Positions 12,448-60,281 of a stretch of DNA of 64,000 bases are shown piece by piece. The notes under the pieces are model-generated. The model worked only from the letters and a program-made list of their open reading frames with translations, ran no database searches and was not told the origin of the DNA. Source of the stretch: an uncultured Sphingobium sp. (GTDB lineage: Bacteria > Pseudomonadota > Alphaproteobacteria > Sphingomonadales > Sphingomonadaceae); contig CBIHNV010000002.1 of NCBI GenBank assembly GCA_966211835.1, positions 110,751 through 174,750 on the forward strand, read 5' to 3'. The translations under genes and the position numbers were made by a program. The stretch's first letter is position 1; each line of letters begins with the position of its first letter.

Positions 12448-12461
12448 ATAGTCCCACCGCT

Positions 12462-12539
12462 CCGTTCGCACTGAGCTTGTCGAAGTGCCCTTCTTCCTTG
12501 AAGTACAGGGCAAGCCTTCGACAGGCTCAGGCCGAACGG
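12462..12539. repeat. REP-like inverted doublet (CCGTTC-GNNC-TGAGCYTGTCGAA-GNNC family) between convergent genes
   Basis: Left arm ccgttcgcactgagcttgtcgaagtgc; inverted right arm agccttcgacaggctcaggccgaacgg. Confidence 0.85.
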
Positions 12540-52178: not shown

Positions 52179-52839
52179 CAGCCATCTCCCCTTCCAGCTT
52201 TTCGGCAGGCCCCGGCCCGACCAGAAAGCGCAAGGTAACCGGCGCCTCACCCGTGCGCGTCACCGTCAGCTCGACGGCACGCGGCATCAGGTCCGGCTGC
52301 GTCGGTATCCACTCATCGCGCCACTCTCCGCGCGCATCGCGAAAGCGCAGCGCGACATCATCCACATGGTCCAGCAGCGTCGCAGGCTCCTCCCCCCCCG
52401 CACCATCGACCTGGCGGTAGGTCCGCCGCTCCAGCCGCCCCTGCCGCACCCAATATTCGACCTTTTGCAACGACGGGCGCGGCAAGTCGCCCAGATTGTC
52501 CCAGCCACCGCGCACGAACTGCATCACCGGCACCGCCTCGCCCTCGCGATGCGACCAGAATGCAGGGGCCAGCGTACCCGCTTCCGTCCGACTGATCCGC
52601 GGCACCGCCTGCCCAAGATCAGCGGCCAGCGCCCCGCCTGCCCGCTGCACGGCGGCCATGTCGTCCAGCCGCTCCTTCACCTGCGCCTGCGCCGAAACGC
52701 TGTTCCCCAGCAACAACACTCCCGCCGCCGCCAGCATGGCAAAGATCATCAACGCCACCAGCAACTCGATAAGCGTAAAGCCCGCCTGCCCGCGCTCCTC
52801 CTGATGCGAGCCAGCTCCATCGGATGCGCGGCTCATCAC
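52171..52839 (-). CDS. gspJ: Minor pseudopilin J
   Basis: G|FTLIELLVALMIFA; VRGGWDN; LQKVEYWV. Confidence 0.88.
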   Translation of the reverse strand: MMSRASDGAGSHQEERGQAGFTLIELLVALMIFAMLAAAGVLLLGNSVSAQAQVKERLDDMAAVQRAGGALAADLGQAVPRISRTEAGTLAPAFWSHREGEAVPVMQFVRGGWDNLGDLPRPSLQKVEYWVRQGRLERRTYRQVDGAGGEEPATLLDHVDDVALRFRDARGEWRDEWIPTQPDLMPRAVELTVTRTGEAPVTLRFLVGPGPAEKLEGEMAGA

Positions 52840-53303
52840 GGCACCACCCGAACAAAACTTAGCACGACCGGCGACGACCCCGCCTGCCCATTCACCGTCA
52901 GATCAACCTGCAACAACCGCTTGTCGCTCGTAGCCTTGACCGCCCGGCTCCAATGCCAGCGCCGCCCGCCATTCTCGACATCGCCCTCTTCGCTGCCCAG
53001 CGAAGGCGGCGCGGGATCGGTCTGCACTTCGACCATCAGGTTACGCGCGACAATCTGTCCCAGCGCCTTGCTGTCGAGATCCGCCGCCGTCCGCAACGTC
53101 ACCCCCTGCAACCGCACCAACGCCAGCGCCGCCAGACTGAACACCGCCAGCGCCACCAGCATCTCCAACAGCGTGAAGCCTTGCTCACCCGTTGGACCCC
53201 GCCTCTCGCCCGTTACAGACCACCTCTCATCCGTTCGGGCTGAGCCTGTCGAAGCCCTTCCCTTTCTTCCAGCAAAGCTACCCAGGATGCCAAACCTACC
53301 CAC
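52836..53303 (-). CDS. gspI: Minor pseudopilin I with a 42-aa repeat-containing leader
   Basis: G|FTLLEMLVALAVF. The only in-frame ATG/GTG/TTG start is the GTG overlapping the gspH stop. Confidence 0.85.
   Translation of the reverse strand: MGRFGILGSFAGRKGRASTGSARTDERWSVTGERRGPTGEQGFTLLEMLVALAVFSLAALALVRLQGVTLRTAADLDSKALGQIVARNLMVEVQTDPAPPSLGSEEGDVENGGRRWHWSRAVKATSDKRLLQVDLTVNGQAGSSPVVLSFVRVVP
53231..53257. repeat. Single REP arm inside the gspI leader
   Basis: ccgttcgggctgagcctgtcgaagccc. Confidence 0.85.
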
Positions 53304-53748: not shown

Positions 53749-53755
53749 TCCCTCT

Positions 53756-53782
53756 CCGTTCGGGCCAAGCCCGTCGAAGTCC
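53756..53782. repeat. Degenerate REP arm at the gspG-gspH junction
   Basis: ccgttcgggccaagcccgtcgaagtcc. Confidence 0.7.
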
Positions 53783-53857
53783 TCAGTCGAGCAAAGCGAG
53801 GCACTCCGCCCTTCTCGGACTTCAACCCCGCTTCCTTCAAACGGATGGCGAGCCAGA

Positions 53858-54391
53858 TCAAAGCACGCTGGAATAAATATCCGCATTCTCGCTCTCGCCG
53901 CCCGGCTGGCCGTCCGCGCCCAGCGAACTGATATCAAACGCGCCCTTCCGCCCTGGCACTACATAATTATACGCCCGGCCCCACGGGTCCTGCGGCAGCT
54001 TCTTGATATATCCACCCCTGCGATAGCGCTGCGGCTGCGCCAGCGAGGCAGGCGGATTGATCAGCGCCTGCAATCCATCGGTCTGCGCCGGGTAGCTCAG
54101 ATTATCGAGCCGATACTGCTCCAGCGCCTGCTCGATCGTAGCGATATCCGCCTTCGCCTTCTCCACCCGCGCCGTGTCGGTCGCCGGAATAACGTTGATC
54201 GCCACGATCGTCGCCAGCAGCCCGATGATGACGATAACCACCATCAACTCGACCAGCGTGAAGCCGTGTTCGGCGGAACGCCTTGAGAAGGTGAAGCAAT
54301 TCTCGCCCGCCTCTCGACCTCCGTTCGCACTGAGCTTGTCGAAGTGCCCTTCTTCTTCTTGGAAAAGGCGCGCGACTTTCAAACTCCACAT
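53858..54391 (-). CDS. gspG: Major pseudopilin G with a 43-aa repeat-containing leader
   Basis: G|FTLVELMVVIVIIGLLA, LPQDPWG, SSLGADGQPGG; GAGGAG RBS 5 nt before the ATG at 54391. Confidence 0.92.
   Translation of the reverse strand: MWSLKVARLFQEEEGHFDKLSANGGREAGENCFTFSRRSAEHGFTLVELMVVIVIIGLLATIVAINVIPATDTARVEKAKADIATIEQALEQYRLDNLSYPAQTDGLQALINPPASLAQPQRYRRGGYIKKLPQDPWGRAYNYVVPGRKGAFDISSLGADGQPGGESENADIYSSVL
54321..54347. repeat. Single REP arm inside the gspG leader
   Basis: 54319-54355 is identical over 37 nt to 12460-12496. Confidence 0.88.
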
Positions 54392-54400
54392 AATCACTCC

Positions 54401-55618
54401 TCAAGCCCCCGTAAGGCTCTGCAATTGCAGGATAGGCAGCAGGATCGACAGGATGATCACCGCCACGATCCCGCCCATCAATATGATGATCACCGGCTCC
54501 AGCATGGCGAGCGCGGCGGAGGTGAAGCTGTCGAACTCCCGCTCCAGATAGTCCGCCGCCCGCTCCAGCATCGTGTCCAGCCGCCCCGCGCTCTCCCCGC
54601 TCGCCGCCAGATAGACCAGCAGCGGCGGAAACACGCCCGCCCGACGCAGCGCCGCCGACAGGCTCCCCCCGCCGCGAATGGCCTCGACAATCTCCTCCGA
54701 CGCCTGCCGCAGCACCCGATTATGCACCGTCTGCGTGGTGAGCGTCAGACCCTCCATCAACGGCAAGCGGCTCGCCACCATCGTCGATAAAGTCCGCGCC
54801 ATCCGCGCCGCATGCAAGTCGCGGATCAACCGCCCCAGCAGCGGCAACCGCAGCAACGTCGCGTCAAATCGATAGCGGAAAGCCTCGACCTTCAACGCCC
54901 GCCAAAAGGTAAAAGCGCCGACCGCGATCAGAATCGCCAGCAACCACCAATAGCCAGCCAGAAAAGCCGAAGTCCCCATCACCATCCGCGTCAGCAGCGG
55001 CAGGTCCTGCCCCACCGTGTCGAACTGCTCCACCACCTTGGGCACTACAAAGATCATCAGCGCCGCGACGACGCACACGGCAAAGGCAGCCAGCACGCTC
55101 GGATAAGCGATCGCCGTCAGCACCTTCGACCGGATCACCGCCTGCCGCTCCATCAGGTCGGACAAGCGCTCCATGATCGTCGGCAAGCTACCGGAGCTTT
55201 CACCCGCCGAAATCATCGCGCGATACAGCGCCGGGAAGCTCTTCGGCTCGGCGCCCAGGGCATCCGCCAACCGCCGCCCTTCCAGCACACCCGAATGCAC
55301 CTTGCTGACGATCGCGCGCACATGCTCCTGCTCGCTCTGCCGCCCGATCGTCCGCAGCGATTCCTCCAGCGGGCTCACCTGGATCAGCGTCGACAGCTGG
55401 CGCGTGAACAGCGTCAATTCCTTGGCCGATAATCTCGGCGCGCGCAGGGAAAAGGCCGCCCGCCTGGCCACCTTCTCCGCCACGTTCGGCTCGATCCGCA
55501 CGATGAACAGCTTGCGCGCGTCGAGCTTCGCCCGCGCATCATCGACCGTCTCGGCCTTCACCTTGCCGCTGCGTTCCTTGCCCGCCGGATCGATGACCAG
55601 ATAATCGAACTCAGCCAT
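54401..55618 (-). CDS. gspF: Type II secretion platform protein F
   Basis: FTRQLSTL, GESSGSL, AMAYP-like AIAYP, GESAGRLDTML. Confidence 0.92.
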   Translation of the reverse strand: MAEFDYLVIDPAGKERSGKVKAETVDDARAKLDARKLFIVRIEPNVAEKVARRAAFSLRAPRLSAKELTLFTRQLSTLIQVSPLEESLRTIGRQSEQEHVRAIVSKVHSGVLEGRRLADALGAEPKSFPALYRAMISAGESSGSLPTIMERLSDLMERQAVIRSKVLTAIAYPSVLAAFAVCVVAALMIFVVPKVVEQFDTVGQDLPLLTRMVMGTSAFLAGYWWLLAILIAVGAFTFWRALKVEAFRYRFDATLLRLPLLGRLIRDLHAARMARTLSTMVASRLPLMEGLTLTTQTVHNRVLRQASEEIVEAIRGGGSLSAALRRAGVFPPLLVYLAASGESAGRLDTMLERAADYLEREFDSFTSAALAMLEPVIIILMGGIVAVIILSILLPILQLQSLTGA

Positions 55619-57143
55619 CAGCGATGGTTTCCACCTCCGCCGCATCGCGCCGCGACACGCGGATGGCTTCTTCCGCCGTAGTCTGCCCATCGCGCACCAG
55701 CGCCCGCGCAGCCGACCCCAGATTGGGCGCGTTGAGGAAAGCATGCCGCGCGATCAAGGACTCGTCGCCCCCATCGTTGATCAGCCGCCGGATGGTATCG
55801 TCCACCCGGATCGCCTCGAACACGCCGATCCGCCCCTTATAGCCGGTGCCGTTGCACTCCTCACACCCTCGCGCCCGATAGATAATAGTTCCGGGATCGA
55901 AACCAAGCAGCGCGCTCGCCGATTTGTCCGCCTGCACCGGCTCCCGGCAATGCTGGCACAGCCGCCGCACCAGCCGCTGCGCAATCACCGCGCGCAGGGT
56001 CGAGGCGAGCAGGAACGGCTCCACTCGCATATCCCGCATCCGCGTGATCGCCCCCACGGCATCATTGGTATGCACCGTCGACAGCACCAGATGCCCCGTC
56101 AGCGACGCCTGCACGGCAATCTCCGCCGTCTCCCGGTCGCGGATCTCGCCGACCATCACCACATCCGGGTCCTGCCGCAGGATGGCCCTCAACCCGGCAG
56201 CGAAAGTCAGACCGACCTTCGCATTCACCTGCGTCTGCCCAACCCCCTCGACCGCATATTCCACCGGGTCCTCCACGGTAAGAATATTGCGCGTCCCATC
56301 ATTCAACTGCCTCAGACCCGCATAGAGCGTAGTCGTCTTGCCCGACCCAGTCGGCCCGGTAACCAGAATAATCCCATTCGGTTCGTGCAATCCTTCACGA
56401 AAAATCCGGTCCGCCGCCCCCGCCATGCCCAGCAGGTCCAGGTTCATGCCCGCATTCTCCTTATCGAGAATACGCAGCACCACCCGCTCGCCAGCCCGGC
56501 TCGGCAGCGTCGAAACGCGCACGTCCAGCAACTTCCCGCCCAACGTCAGCCCGATCCGCCCATCCTGCGGCACCCGCCGCTCGGCAATATCCAGCCGCGC
56601 CATCACCTTGATCCGGCTCACCACCACCGGCGCAACATGCGGCGGCATGCGCAAAGTCTCGCGCAGCACCCCGTCGATCCGCATCCGCACGATCAAGCCC
56701 GTCTCATACGGTTCGATATGAATGTCCGAAACGCCCTGACGCGCCGCCTCCGCAATGATGCCGTTGATCAGCCGGATCGCGGGCGCATCATCGGCGCTGT
56801 CGAGCAAGTCGTCGGCAGTCGGAATATCGGCAGCGAGAATGTCCAGCTCATCCGCCCCTACTTCCAGCGATCCCGCCATGGCGGCAGCGCTGCCCTCCAT
56901 CGCATAATGGTCGGACAGATGCCGGTCGAACTGCGCCCCATCCACGAAGCGCACATCGAAACTGCGCGCCAGATGCCGCCGCACTTCCAGCAACACCCGC
57001 GGATCGCTCCCCTCGCGTACCGCGATCGTCAGCCGGTCCCCGTCCAGCGGCAACATGACCACGCCATGCTTGCGCGCAAAGACATAGGGAATATCTACCG
57101 CGCGCGGGGCGGTGTGCAGAAACGGTTCGGCAGGCGCGCTCAC
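55611..57143 (-). CDS. gspE: Type II secretion ATPase E
   Basis: SDIHIEP, GPTGSGKTTT, RQDPDVVMVGEIRD, tetra-Cys motif. GTG start at 57143 or 57149. Confidence 0.95.
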   Translation of the reverse strand: MSAPAEPFLHTAPRAVDIPYVFARKHGVVMLPLDGDRLTIAVREGSDPRVLLEVRRHLARSFDVRFVDGAQFDRHLSDHYAMEGSAAAMAGSLEVGADELDILAADIPTADDLLDSADDAPAIRLINGIIAEAARQGVSDIHIEPYETGLIVRMRIDGVLRETLRMPPHVAPVVVSRIKVMARLDIAERRVPQDGRIGLTLGGKLLDVRVSTLPSRAGERVVLRILDKENAGMNLDLLGMAGAADRIFREGLHEPNGIILVTGPTGSGKTTTLYAGLRQLNDGTRNILTVEDPVEYAVEGVGQTQVNAKVGLTFAAGLRAILRQDPDVVMVGEIRDRETAEIAVQASLTGHLVLSTVHTNDAVGAITRMRDMRVEPFLLASTLRAVIAQRLVRRLCQHCREPVQADKSASALLGFDPGTIIYRARGCEECNGTGYKGRIGVFEAIRVDDTIRRLINDGGDESLIARHAFLNAPNLGSAARALVRDGQTTAEEAIRVSRRDAAEVETIADG

Positions 57144-57271
57144 TTCCACCCCCGTTCGCCCTGAGCTTGTCGACCCGATAAGGCGGCGTAGCCAACGGCC
57201 TTACTGACTTGAAGAGAAGAGAAGGGCTTCGACAAGCTCAGCCCGAACGGAGATGGCAACGCGTCTGTCAC
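57140..57271 (-). CDS. Putative 43-aa repeat-encoded bridging ORF between gspD and gspE
   Basis: MTDALPSPFGLSLSKPFSSLQVSKAVGYAALSGRQAQGERGWK; GTGA overlaps at both ends. Confidence 0.4.
   Translation of the reverse strand: MTDALPSPFGLSLSKPFSSLQVSKAVGYAALSGRQAQGERGWK
57152..57250. repeat. REP-like doublet of the CCGTTC family with a nested insert
   Basis: ccgttcgccctgagcttgtcga[insert]...gggcttcgacaagctcagcccgaacgg. Confidence 0.85.
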
Positions 57272-59460
57272 CGCTGCCCTCCACTCGCCGGAACATCCAC
57301 CGGCCGCACGACGCCGCTCGATTGCCGCATCGTCGGCTCGATCACCTGCGCCGGAACAGCAGCCGCAGCGCCCGGCTGCACCACCGCATCGCCTGCCTGC
57401 ATGGGTGCAGGCGGCGTCGCGCCCATATAGTCGCGCACCAGTTCATCAATGCTGGGTTCGGCCTCCGGATTGCGCGCCAACTGCATGTCCCGGACATAGC
57501 CATAGCGTTGCTGCGTCAGGCGCTGCGCATCCTCCTTCGACCGTAGGATGGTGGGCCGGATGAAGACCATGAGGTTGGTCTTGCTCCGGCTCTTGCTGCG
57601 CGACTTGAACAGCTCGCCTATGCCCGGAATGTCCGAAAGCAGCGGAATCCGCTCGATCGTCTTGCGCTCATTATCGTCCAGCAACCCGCCCAGCGCCAAT
57701 ATCTCGCCATCATCCACAGTGACCGTCGTCTCGATCTCACGCTTGTTGATGATGAGGTCGCTATTATTGTTGGACACCGGCCCCGCGACGCTCGACACTT
57801 CCTGCTTCAGGAACAGCTTGATCGCGCCACCCGTGTTGATCTGCGGCTTCACCTCCAGCTTGATACCGACATCCTGCCGCTGGACGGTACGGAACTGGTT
57901 ATCGAAATTCTGGCTCAGCGCCTCGCCAGTCGTGATTGGCACCTGCTGCCCGACCAAGATCGACGCTTTTTGATTATCGAGCGTCATGACCGACGGCGTC
58001 GAGAGGATATTGCTATCCGTATCCGACCGCACCGCATTGATGATCGCGCCGAAGATTCCATTACGGCCGATCTGCGTCGCGACCCCGCCAAAGCCGCCGG
58101 TCGCGTTCATCAGGCTATCGACGGCTGCCTGTTGGAGCGTGTTGGACAGATCGCCATTCTGCCGCGTCTCTGTGGTCGTCCTGGTTCCATCAGGCGCGAC
58201 TACGGTGGTCGTAGTCGTTCCCAGATCATTGGCTGCGACAGCCCCCGCTAACGTCAGCAGATTCGGCGAAGCATTGGAATAGTTAGTCGCAGCAAAGCCC
58301 GTCTTCGTACTGCCGATCAGGAACTGCACACCCAGCTTCCGGGCAGCGGTATCGCTGATCTCGACGATGATTGCTTCGACCAGAACCTGCTCGCGCCGCG
58401 TGTCCAACTGCCGGACAGTCTCGCCCAGCATCCGCTGCACATCACTATTGGCGGCCACGATGATCGCGTTGGCCCCTTCATAACGGGTGACGATAGCAGG
58501 CCCGCGCGTGGAAATACCGGCCCCGGATGATCCGCCGCCACTCGCCACGGGCGCGGCCGCAGCCTGTGCAGCCCCGTTCGCCGCCGCCGGGACGGATGCC
58601 GTCACCGCCGAAGCGGTCGATTGCCCCACCAGTTGCTGCAACACCGGCAGCAGCTTTTCGGCGTCCGCATGCTCCAGCCAGTAAACGCGGATTTCGGTGC
58701 CACTTGCCGCCTGCCGGTCAAGGTCGCGCGCCATCTGCGCCAGCCGCACGACGGTGCCGGAATCGCCGCGAATAGCGACCGAATTGCTGCTGTCGATCGG
58801 CACGATGGTCGCCGCCCGCTGCGCCCCTTCGGCCCCGTTCTGCACCAGCGCCTGAAGCGAGGTCGCGATTTCACGCGCGCCAGCATTGCGCAGCGTCACC
58901 GTCTGCGTCGCCGCCGTGTCGCGGTCGATCCGCGCCAGCACTTGGCGGATGCGCCCGATATTGTCGGCATAGTCGGCCACCACCACGCTATTGCCCGCAC
59001 GGTTGGCCGTCACCGATCCGTCCTTGCTGACCAGCGGCCGCAATGTCTCCAGCGCGCTGGCGGCATCGATCGATCGCAGGCGGAAAACCTCCGTCACGAA
59101 CTGGTTGCGGTTGGCGCCCCGTCCAACGACGCTGGGCTGCCCTGCAGCTCCATCGGCTGGCTGGATGCGATAAGCACCTCCCGGCGCTGGCACGGCGACC
59201 AGCCCATTTGCCCGCAGGGTCGAAAGGAAAATCTCGAAATATTCCGATCGCGACAGCGGCCGGTCAGTCACGACCGAAACCTTACCCTGCACCCGATTGT
59301 CGATGATGAAGGTCCGGCCCGTCACCCGCGCCGCATCCTGAATGAAGGCGCGGATGTCGGCGTCCCGCACATTCAGCGTCTGCTGCGCCGCTACCGGAGA
59401 AGCGAGTGGCGCGGCCAAAGCGAGAGCCATTGCAGCGGAAAGAAGGAGTTTTCTGGTCAT
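57268..59460 (-). CDS. gspD: Type II secretion secretin D
   Basis: N0 domain ADIRAFI, QVLVEAIIVEI, LSTPSVMTLDN, KTNLMVFIRP. Confidence 0.95.
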   Translation of the reverse strand: MTRKLLLSAAMALALAAPLASPVAAQQTLNVRDADIRAFIQDAARVTGRTFIIDNRVQGKVSVVTDRPLSRSEYFEIFLSTLRANGLVAVPAPGGAYRIQPADGAAGQPSVVGRGANRNQFVTEVFRLRSIDAASALETLRPLVSKDGSVTANRAGNSVVVADYADNIGRIRQVLARIDRDTAATQTVTLRNAGAREIATSLQALVQNGAEGAQRAATIVPIDSSNSVAIRGDSGTVVRLAQMARDLDRQAASGTEIRVYWLEHADAEKLLPVLQQLVGQSTASAVTASVPAAANGAAQAAAAPVASGGGSSGAGISTRGPAIVTRYEGANAIIVAANSDVQRMLGETVRQLDTRREQVLVEAIIVEISDTAARKLGVQFLIGSTKTGFAATNYSNASPNLLTLAGAVAANDLGTTTTTVVAPDGTRTTTETRQNGDLSNTLQQAAVDSLMNATGGFGGVATQIGRNGIFGAIINAVRSDTDSNILSTPSVMTLDNQKASILVGQQVPITTGEALSQNFDNQFRTVQRQDVGIKLEVKPQINTGGAIKLFLKQEVSSVAGPVSNNNSDLIINKREIETTVTVDDGEILALGGLLDDNERKTIERIPLLSDIPGIGELFKSRSKSRSKTNLMVFIRPTILRSKEDAQRLTQQRYGYVRDMQLARNPEAEPSIDELVRDYMGATPPAPMQAGDAVVQPGAAAAVPAQVIEPTMRQSSGVVRPVDVPASGGQR

Positions 59461-60281
59461 TGGCCTTGCAGAGTAAGGTTGATCGTCGAAAGGCTCGCGC
59501 CCCGCTCGACGGTCAGGGAAATGCGCGCGCCGGGCATGATCTTGCCCTGCAACGCCTGGAGGTCGCTCGGCGAGCCGATCGGCTGCCCATCGACCTGGGT
59601 GACGATGTCGCCGAGCTGGAAACCGGCATTCTGGAAACTCGGCCCCCTGGCCGTCAGGATCAGGCCCGTGATGCGCCCGCTCTGCATGCGCGGCGCAAAG
59701 CCGATATCCCGCTTCAGCCCGTCGGCGGTCGGATTGTCGATGCCGACAGCCGGAGCCGGAACCACGCCACCTTCTCCGGCCGAAGCTGTCGGCGCAGGCT
59801 GAGACTGGTCGAGGAATATCTGTTCTTCCGCCCCGCCCCGGTCGATGGTGACATGATCGAACGCCACGGCTTTCAGCAGCACGCCCGGCAATATCTCGTC
59901 ACCCACGGCAAAGCTGTTCTGCACGCCGTCCGGCCCCGCGATGATCGCTGACCCCAGGCCTGACCCCTCATTCAACCGGATGCCGTAAACGGTCAGCGCC
60001 AGCGACGTGACCACGCCCCCGCCAGCCGCCTGCTGCGGCCCGGCCCGATAAAAGGGATCGAAGCTCGAAAATAATGCCTGACGCGCGGCGAAATTGGGGA
60101 ACTGCGCCTGCCGCCCTTCCCACGGTCCAAAGCTGCCGACCGGCGTCAGCACCGCCCAGATCAGCCTCGCGCATTGCAGCACCAACAGGCCAAGCAGCAG
60201 CTTTTCAGCCACCCGCACCCAGTCGATCGGGGCAAGGCGGCTGCTAAGGCCCTGAAAGTTACTGCGAAACGGCACGCGCAT
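59457..60281 (-). CDS. gspC: Type II secretion protein C with PDZ domain
   Basis: TM, HR domain GSAIIAGPDG.Q, PDZ GDIVTQVDG; first gene of the operon. Confidence 0.8.
   Translation of the reverse strand: MRVPFRSNFQGLSSRLAPIDWVRVAEKLLLGLLVLQCARLIWAVLTPVGSFGPWEGRQAQFPNFAARQALFSSFDPFYRAGPQQAAGGGVVTSLALTVYGIRLNEGSGLGSAIIAGPDGVQNSFAVGDEILPGVLLKAVAFDHVTIDRGGAEEQIFLDQSQPAPTASAGEGGVVPAPAVGIDNPTADGLKRDIGFAPRMQSGRITGLILTARGPSFQNAGFQLGDIVTQVDGQPIGSPSDLQALQGKIMPGARISLTVERGASLSTINLTLQGQ

Follow-up and report, generated by a model that had tools for sequence, protein, structure and literature searches.

The relay open reading frame between gspD and gspE

The stretch of DNA analysed here, 64,000 nt of an uncultured Sphingobium sp. 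(GenBank assembly GCA_966211835.1, contig CBIHNV010000002.1, positions 110,751 to 174,750), is called the window, and all positions are counted from its first nucleotide. It harbors a type II secretion system (T2SS) operon, gspC-D-E-F-G-H-I, which is encoded on the minus strand and shows the same gene order in relatives. The deduced GspE protein is 96-97% identical to those of Sphingobium chungbukense, S. mellinum, and Sphingobium sp. AP50, which places the window in Sphingobium. Between gspD, the gene for the secretin (57268-59460; Pfam Secretin, Secretin_N, and type_II_gspD_N0), and gspE, the gene for the ATPase (55611-57143; Pfam T2SSE and GSPE_N1E), a palindromic repeat is located, and an open reading frame (ORF) of 43 codons runs through it on the minus strand (GTG...TGA, 57140-57271; translation VTDALPSPFGLSLSKPFSSLQVSKAVGYAALSGRQAQGERGWK*). 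This ORF is referred to as the relay ORF.

An earlier note, made from the sequence alone, had described the ORF as coupled to both neighboring genes by GTGA overlaps, and this arrangement was confirmed by the ORF listing, the translation, and the sequence positions. In the upstream GTGA (57268-57271), the stop codon of gspD (TGA, 57270-57268) overlaps the relay start (GTG, 57271-57269), while in the downstream GTGA (57140-57143) the relay stop (TGA, 57142-57140) overlaps the start codon of gspE (GTG, 57143-57141). The distance between the two starts is 128 nt (2 mod 3). A Shine-Dalgarno (SD)-like motif, GGAGGG, is present in the 3' end of gspD at 57277-57282 on the minus strand, 5-6 nt upstream of GTG 57271. 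Directly in front of gspE, the SD-like sequence GGGGGTGG (57146-57153, minus strand) lies in the base of a predicted stem. A second in-frame GTG for gspE is situated at 57149-57147, two codons upstream of GTG 57143, and was used by one gene caller. Since the gspE frame is closed by TAA 57203-57201, these two GTG codons are the only possible starts of gspE. Exact-product look-ups yielded no record for the relay peptide, GspD, GspF, or GspE starting at 57143; only GspE starting at 57149 is on record.

The insert is a dispersed palindromic repeat

Inverted-repeat detection revealed two arms of 28 nt on the minus strand, which are 86% complementary and separated by a loop of 55 nt. The 5' arm in the mRNA (57229-57256) is read as PFGLSLSKP in the relay frame, while both the SD-like G-run and gspE's second possible GTG lie in the 3' arm (57146-57173). 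The hairpin is predicted to fold with -59.5 kcal/mol. Compared with the same element at locus L082 (loci of relatives are designated by L numbers), alignment showed the loop in the window to be extended by 22 nt (57175-57196, minus strand); this segment belongs to a small internal hairpin (57179-57203), which a pattern search detected only once in the window. Of the proposed doublet of repetitive extragenic palindromic (REP) sequences with a nested insert, the doublet has therefore to be replaced by a single inverted repeat, while the nested insert is real.

The arms, CCGTTCG-NN-CTGAGCYTGTCGAAG, define a multi-copy, dispersed family. In the window, copies are found at 12461, 46815, 53230, 53755, 54320, and 57146-57256, and further ones were detected at L013, L033, L082, and L166. 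[quoted passage not shown] The copy at 12461-12539 is complete with 79 nt and lacks the 22-nt loop segment. This canonical form leaves two of three frames open on each strand, with an unbroken reading PFxLSLSK...LRQAQxER. In soil and rhizosphere metagenomes, word depth reached 1000-7000x on the arms versus about 10x on the flanks, demonstrating a high abundance of the repeat family in these communities. Six short-read assemblies (X1, X4, X11, X16, X31, and X32) break inside the repeat arm (57205-57258).

Scanning the insert for promoters and terminators revealed neither a terminator-like T-run nor any other terminator- or promoter-like site, and the hairpin is therefore not an intrinsic terminator. 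The locus is also present in some RNA-labelled sequencing runs, which provide weak evidence that both flanks of the repeat are transcribed. A known structured RNA was also considered and rejected, as the best Rfam match, obtained with a permissive E-value, scored 18 bits compared with a gathering score of 97. Nothing relevant on a described sphingomonad REP family was found in the open-access literature.

The repeat was inserted into an ancestral start/stop overlap

In the closest insert-free relatives, the segment between the two GTGA copies, 124 nt at 57144-57267 on the minus strand, is missing from the alignment. At L081, L001-L003, L166 (S. yanoikuyae-type), L170, and L173, gspD and gspE overlap once, by 4 nt (GTGA or ATGA), so that one xTGA takes the place of the two GTGAs of the window. 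L081, the closest of these loci, reads ...CCGTGAGCG... at the junction, and its gspE start matches the downstream GTGAGCG of the window; L002 and L003 have ATGA. Nearly all of about 60 distinct junctions from Sphingomonadales have a start codon in the frame of gspE at position -1 relative to the gspD stop. From this single overlap in relatives it follows that the two GTGAs of the window represent a duplicated target site around the insert of 124 nt. Direct duplications are also seen at other filled sites, ATGAG in L086 and TGAAGG in L104. Filled and empty orthologous sites differing by a short direct duplication are a further hallmark of mobile repeats. That a repeat had landed in an ancestral coupled gspD/gspE junction, as suggested before, is thus strongly supported by the empty sites in relatives and by the GTGA duplicated on either side of the insert.

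The comparison also points to the origin of the relay start. It is the retained ancestral initiation site of gspE: the stop of gspD, together with the old SD and start, has been kept with the upstream GTGA, and the downstream copy keeps the body of gspE. Before the overlapping gspE start, insert-free relatives have the same Ser-Gly-Glu/Gly codons (GGAG/GGGGA), and GGAGGG at 57282-57277 can accordingly be regarded, from sequence comparison, as the ancestral gspE ribosome-binding site (RBS), which is now at the service of the relay ORF.

Inserts at the gspD/gspE junction of relatives

Whether relatives with inserts keep the frame open was a check put forward in the earlier note. Five further loci with inserts out of frame with gspE are available. 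L082 (L082-85) contains a repeat of the same family as the window, with 106 nt between the starts and a relay of 37 codons, and L086 a decayed copy of this family (92 nt, 31 codons). The insert of L094 is different from that of the window (182 nt, 59 codons), L093 has a repeat array (587 nt, 196 codons), and L104 contains unrelated GGGGACAGTCCCC repeats (128 nt, 43 codons). At each of these five loci, the insert contains no stop in the frame of the old start, and the relay stop is positioned between 5 nt ahead of and 5 nt past the start of gspE. The outcome of the check was therefore positive in five of five cases. In L104 (about 1409-1540), a GTGA...ATGA arrangement with exactly the 128-nt/43-codon geometry of the window is built from a different repeat; its GspE has only two residues ahead of the conserved PY motif. 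In L093, the gspD stop is part of a GTGA and the gspE start part of an ATGA; the array between them (about 820-1410) comprises about 590 nt of several palindromic repeat types, and its ORF of 196 codons is an extreme relay. Pfam searches with the relay ORFs of L093 (196 codons) and L094 (59 codons) detected no family.

In the gene tree, L082 adjoins the insert-free L003, while the window adjoins L086. The position of L082 beside an insert-free locus indicates at least two independent insertions within Sphingobium.

At five other loci, L013, L106, L174, L096, and L110, palindromic inserts are in frame and are read as the N-terminus of GspE. Translations of repeats were also noticed in the variable GspE N-termini of the database proteins P0057, P0064, P0073, P0083, and P0099 (e.g. 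SPSPSGEGLGWG...PPTPNPSPEGEGL). L174 and L175 had been picked because of an annotated gap of 80-128 nt; in both, the frame of the overlapped start is open into gspE and the other two frames are closed. In the NCBI annotation of L174, the gspE start is placed after the repeat, which creates a false gap of 128 nt. A junction with a prematurely closed coupled frame was not found in the survey, L174 and L175 included. The metagenome scan contributed few close relatives.

No insert was detected at gspC/gspD in any sphingomonad locus surveyed, and this junction therefore offered no extra test. In L082, a repeat of the same family is present between gspG and gspH. Two of its three frames contain stops, while the frame common to gspG and gspH is open past the gspG stop; no relay ORF was identified there, this common frame not having been followed. 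Since gspH starts are ambiguous elsewhere, gspG/gspH is a weak control only.

Inserts at the gspE/gspF junction

In the window, gspE and gspF are joined by an uninterrupted 8-nt overlap of stop and start, ATGGCTGA (55611-55618, minus strand), which represents the ancestral state. Inserts at this position were found in eight loci, L091, L108, L109, L013, L174, L019, L094, and L093. They are palindromic, 68-162 nt in size, belong to at least five unrelated families, and are bordered at both ends by the octamer RTGNNTRA. In all eight, the old start (-5) opens a stop-free ORF of 27-57 codons, which ends exactly on the TGA located 5 nt into the new gspF (RTG-SCT-GA), and the spacing from start to start is 1 mod 3 without exception. 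L091 is ambiguous, because a further upstream ATG gives another frame. Several of the new gspF starts, for example those of L019 and L094, are without an SD of their own.

Statistical evaluation and conservation of the insert

Taken by itself, the relay ORF of the window is compatible with chance and not significant: one of the three frames of the insert is open, 37.5% of dinucleotide shuffles leave the relay frame open, and the required phase has a probability of 1/3. Its significance derives from the comparative data and not from the ORF in isolation. For the openness of the six relay frames at gspD/gspE, the product of probabilities is 0.049 when frames are counted and 1.3e-3 when shuffles are used. 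The phase at gspE/gspF gives a naive value of (1/3)^8 = 1.5e-4, or 1.4e-3 to 4e-3 for five to six independent events. When both junctions were pooled and possibly orthologous inserts grouped, p = 0.004-0.04 was obtained, depending on the grouping; for out-of-frame events alone, the right phase was observed in seven of eight (p = 0.035). Independence of insertion events was inferred in these calculations. L082, which is out of phase with the window and L086 (106 versus 128 and 92 nt), was counted as a separate event. Length differences between members of putatively orthologous pairs (the window/L086, L109/L013, and L093/L094 at both junctions) are 36, 9, 405, and 42 nt, all multiples of three ((1/3)^4 = 0.012).

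Conservation over a shorter distance could be assessed with strain L176, in which the relay ORF is intact. L176 specifies an identical GspE, and 12-14% of the four-fold sites differ in gspD, gspE, and gspF. Its insert has the same length as that of the window and contains three substitutions in 124 nt, which all fall within the loop (p = 4e-5 relative to the synonymous rate). Indels and stops are absent, the frame is intact, and neither the arms nor the 17-nt and 8-nt spacers are changed. Two of the three substitutions are non-synonymous, and one of the three weakens the small internal hairpin. With two non-synonymous changes out of three, the constraint does not appear to be one on the peptide.

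Folding of the junction and the proposed relay

The G-run in front of gspE (57153-57146) and the start codon are located in the stem or at its base. The cost of exposing the gspE RBS was computed to be 23 kcal/mol for the free mRNA and 24 kcal/mol with a ribosome positioned on the gspD stop. With a ribosome covering the 5' arm, it drops to 13.4 kcal/mol, similar to the 12.8 kcal/mol computed for the insert-free junction of L081. Reinitiation is known to peak at -4 overlaps, and elongating ribosomes unfold inhibitory structures overlapping the upstream ORF (PMC4538824). Both ends of the relay ORF have the -4 overlap, and the hairpin burying the gspE RBS lies inside the ORF. Short ORFs can also "deliver" ribosomes, as described for mycobacterial interspersed repetitive units (MIRUs; PMC12548453). 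The computed folding costs fit both routes of coupling, ribosome-assisted unfolding and reinitiation (PMC4538824; PMC12548453).

From these data, a mechanism can be proposed. As the upstream GTGA retains the gspD stop, the old SD, and the old start, ribosomes would still initiate or reinitiate at the old start. Given the spacing of 128 nt (2 mod 3) and the stop-free frame, they would read 43 codons across the hairpin and then stop at the TGA within the downstream GTGA. Reading of the 5' arm would melt the stem that buries the SD-like G-run and the start codon of gspE, and termination at the -4 overlap would allow the same or a waiting ribosome to start gspE. Selection would then act on the openness of the frame and its ending at the gspE start, the amino acid sequence not being selected. 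Such arrangements most likely originate by filtering: an insert at a zero-length junction would be retained only when it either shares the frame of the downstream gene or forms a relay. That the relay ORF is such a translated spacer, unfolding the hairpin and delivering ribosomes to gspE, has the best support of the explanations considered, and we regard it as reasonably probable. The earlier proposal that a relay ORF preserves translational coupling is thus supported by the recurrence, the phase bias, the conservation in relatives, and the folding calculation. Anatomy, ancestry, recurrence, and conservation of the ORF are observed; its translation, and the dependence of gspE on it, we infer.

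A number of observations weigh against this interpretation. The sample is restricted to about 60 junctions from one order and one operon. The window and L086, L093 and L094, and L109, L013, and L174 may each represent one insertion, in which case the conservative p value is only about 0.04. L086 and L104 are stop-free in all three frames and are therefore uninformative with respect to openness. L082 is in the "wrong" phase, its relay ending by chance on a TGA that lies 5 nt into gspE. The low divergence of the insert in L176 could, for the arms, reflect gene conversion among repeat copies and not selection. In public runs, the locus is present only as assembled contigs on either side of the repeat. 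Finally, the SD-like motif of gspE itself makes some independent initiation possible.

Alternative explanations

Of the alternatives, the first is considered unlikely. The repeat could be an ordinary transcribed REP hairpin, acting as a barrier to mRNA decay or as a translation insulator that lowers GspE relative to GspD, and the open frame would be incidental. gspE would initiate independently from its own G-rich SD whenever the stem breathes, and the frame of 43 codons would be without consequence. The frequency of open frames in shuffled sequences, the phase probability of 1/3, and the two open frames of the canonical element agree with this explanation, as does the presence of GGGGGTGG in front of gspE. 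The gspG/gspH repeat of L082, with stops in two of three frames (the shared one, which was not followed, being open), can be cited in the same sense, and stable structures just past stop codons have been reported to insulate against reinitiation (PMC7518266). An incidental frame leaves unexplained, however, why 14 of 14 out-of-frame loci at two junctions have an old-start frame that stays open up to the next start and ends there, and why the spacing is 1 mod 3 at all eight gspE/gspF inserts. Moreover, the ancestral SD and start are intact right before the hairpin, so that a special reason would be needed for them not to be used, burial of the gspE RBS costs 23 kcal/mol, and a terminator-like T-run is missing.

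Alternatively, the old GTG could be active and the relay ORF translated but merely tolerated, gspE not needing it. The phase bias would then result from the harm done by other phases, which produce either an N-terminally extended fusion protein or out-of-frame ribosomes blocking the downstream start. An active old start is indeed all that the phase bias requires, and in-frame fusions are found at gspD/gspE (L013, L106, L174, L096, and L110) and never at gspE/gspF, where the N-terminus of GspF, MADFDY, is conserved. On the other hand, several downstream starts lack an SD (L019 and L094), and that of the window is buried in the stem; in both situations, a delivering or unfolding ribosome would most simply account for initiation. 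Mere tolerance is therefore considered rather improbable.

That the product of 43 amino acids is a functional micro-protein, for example in the secretion machinery, is highly improbable in spite of a good SD and start, the conservation of the ORF in L176, and a weak match to Pfam DUF6411 (E = 4e-4, 20.9 bits against a cut-off of 25), because the relay peptides of relatives have only the arm-encoded PFGLSLSKP in common (14 of 37 residues are shared between the window and L082, at most seven in other pairs), the 3' arm yields GRQAQGER in the window and, in a different frame, PFDRLRANG in L082, the GC content by codon position is flat (0.58/0.56/0.65) unlike that of gspD, gspE, and gspF, two of three substitutions in L176 are non-synonymous, the exact product is not on record, and gene callers leave a gap at this position. 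The earlier idea of a candidate de novo peptide gene is consequently not supported and was rejected. An assignment of the product to DUF6411 was rejected as spurious: the match is below threshold, and neither the translations of sister repeats nor other relay peptides gave one.

Comparison with known systems

The closest precedent for a relay of this kind is provided by the MIRUs, small repeats in mycobacterial operons. They are described as units of 40-100 bp, often in tandem, which insert at start codons with tetranucleotide direct repeats and whose ORF is coupled to the gene downstream with a spacing of -4 (Supply et al. 1997, via PMC12548453 and PMC3184786). The likeness would be one of working, and the element of the window is not a member of this family: it is not a Mycobacterium unit of 40-100 bp with an element-intrinsic ORF. 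Common to both are small mobile repeats in polycistronic operons, insertion at a start codon, and tetranucleotide direct repeats; an ORF that is oriented like the operon and overlaps, with its two ends, the neighboring stop and start (-4), as is the case in the window; and the proposal that the effect of the insertion on downstream expression is minimized. Several differences are apparent. The ORF of MIRUs is intrinsic to the element, whereas here the start is the retained codon of the host, and the frame of the 3' arm varies between copies. MIRUs are confined in this comparison to Mycobacterium, while several unrelated families of GC-rich palindromic hairpins are involved in the Sphingomonadales, a different phylum-level lineage. 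In addition, the length of the inserts described here fits the overlap, being 2 mod 3 at the 4-nt and 1 mod 3 at the 8-nt overlap. The retained ancestral start, the duplication of target-site type, and the published MIRU precedent go beyond what had been noted before on this DNA.

Synthetic bicistronic designs (BCDs) and translational couplers are similar in that a short, well-initiated leader cistron contains the downstream SD in its 3' end and that its stop overlaps the downstream start, the helicase activity of the ribosome clearing structures at the second RBS (PMC6302717, 10.1101/2023.02.09.527918, PMC4538824). BCDs are, however, engineered, comprise about 16-20 codons, and are placed at the 5' end of the transcript, whereas the relay ORF of the window is natural, 43 codons long, located between genes, and born from a repeat. 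Rickettsia palindromic elements (RPEs) and intragenic MITEs and REPs demonstrate that palindromic repeats are tolerated in translated sequence, and REP ends are known to supply stop codons (PMC10969869; PMC3733652). In-frame versions occur here as well, at the N-terminus of GspE in relatives and in the leaders of GspG and GspI in the window. While RPEs join the host protein, the gspD/gspE insert of the window is out of frame with gspE and constitutes a separate mini-cistron. Classical REPs and bacterial interspersed mosaic elements (BIMEs) as well as ribosome termination structures share with it the transcribed GC-rich hairpin just past a stop codon within an operon (PMC3184786; PMC7518266). 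They lie in untranslated spacers and stabilize the upstream mRNA or insulate translation, whereas the hairpin of the window is inside a frame opened before it. No description of a relay arrangement for REP-type hairpins or T2SS operons was found in the open-access literature.

Implications for tightly coupled operons

The main interest of these results is the recurrence of a phase rule across two junctions. According to this rule, the insert length modulo 3 may be set by the overlap at the junction, and a natural bicistronic coupler may arise from the old start in combination with the open frame and the duplicated stop/start. Whether relay ORFs are a general, selection-maintained way for palindromic repeats to enter zero-length coupled junctions in GC-rich bacteria is a question we would answer tentatively, holding the chances to be nearly balanced. 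If true, the phase of inserts at overlap junctions would be a genome-wide readout of selection on translational coupling that needs no experiment. The data suggest how selfish repeats enter tightly packed operons, which offer them no neutral space, an insert surviving if ribosomes read through it and pass on. They also offer natural-experiment evidence for functional coupling of stop/start overlaps in a secretion operon, and they extend the largely overlooked MIRU observation to hairpin repeats in Alphaproteobacteria. For practical purposes, the relay ORF is a candidate for a ready-made natural translational coupler working across a hairpin of -59 kcal/mol. With respect to annotation, translation probably extends through the "intergenic gaps" of 80-130 nt left by gene callers in operons of this type, and start codons of GspE, GspF, GspG, GspH, and GspI are mis-assigned in some records.

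Other genes and repeats of the operon

The remaining genes of the operon were defined in the same way, all on the minus strand. gspC (59457-60281) precedes gspD and matches Pfam T2SSC/PDZ, and gspF (54401-55618; Pfam T2SSF) is followed by the pseudopilin genes gspG, gspH, and gspI, with an N_methyl domain detected in GspG (Pfam). In the ORF at 53858-54397, the prepilin motif of GspG, GFTLVELMVV, begins at residue 40. Half a copy of the repeat found at gspD/gspE is located at 54320-54360, in frame within the part encoding the GspG leader. As there is no in-frame start between this repeat and the cleavage site, gspG must start about 10 nt past the gspF stop, and the GspG leader, with about 45 amino acids, is unusually long and includes the repeat-encoded residues EEEGHFDKLSANGG.

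A comparable situation was observed for gspI (ORF 52836-53303). GTG 53303 is its sole possible start and is part of an 8-nt overlap with the gspH stop (GTGGGTAG). The leader of 41 amino acids preceding G|FTLLE in GspI contains the in-frame half repeat GRKGRASTGSARTDE (53230-53270). A related repeat occupies 53755-53830, downstream of the gspG stop (53858) and ahead of GTG 53748. The gspH frame is open across this repeat and back to ATG 53886 within gspG. The repeat between gspG and gspH may therefore be translated as a leader in the window, the true start of gspH being ambiguous; in the annotation of L173 and L176, gspH begins 29 nt inside gspG.

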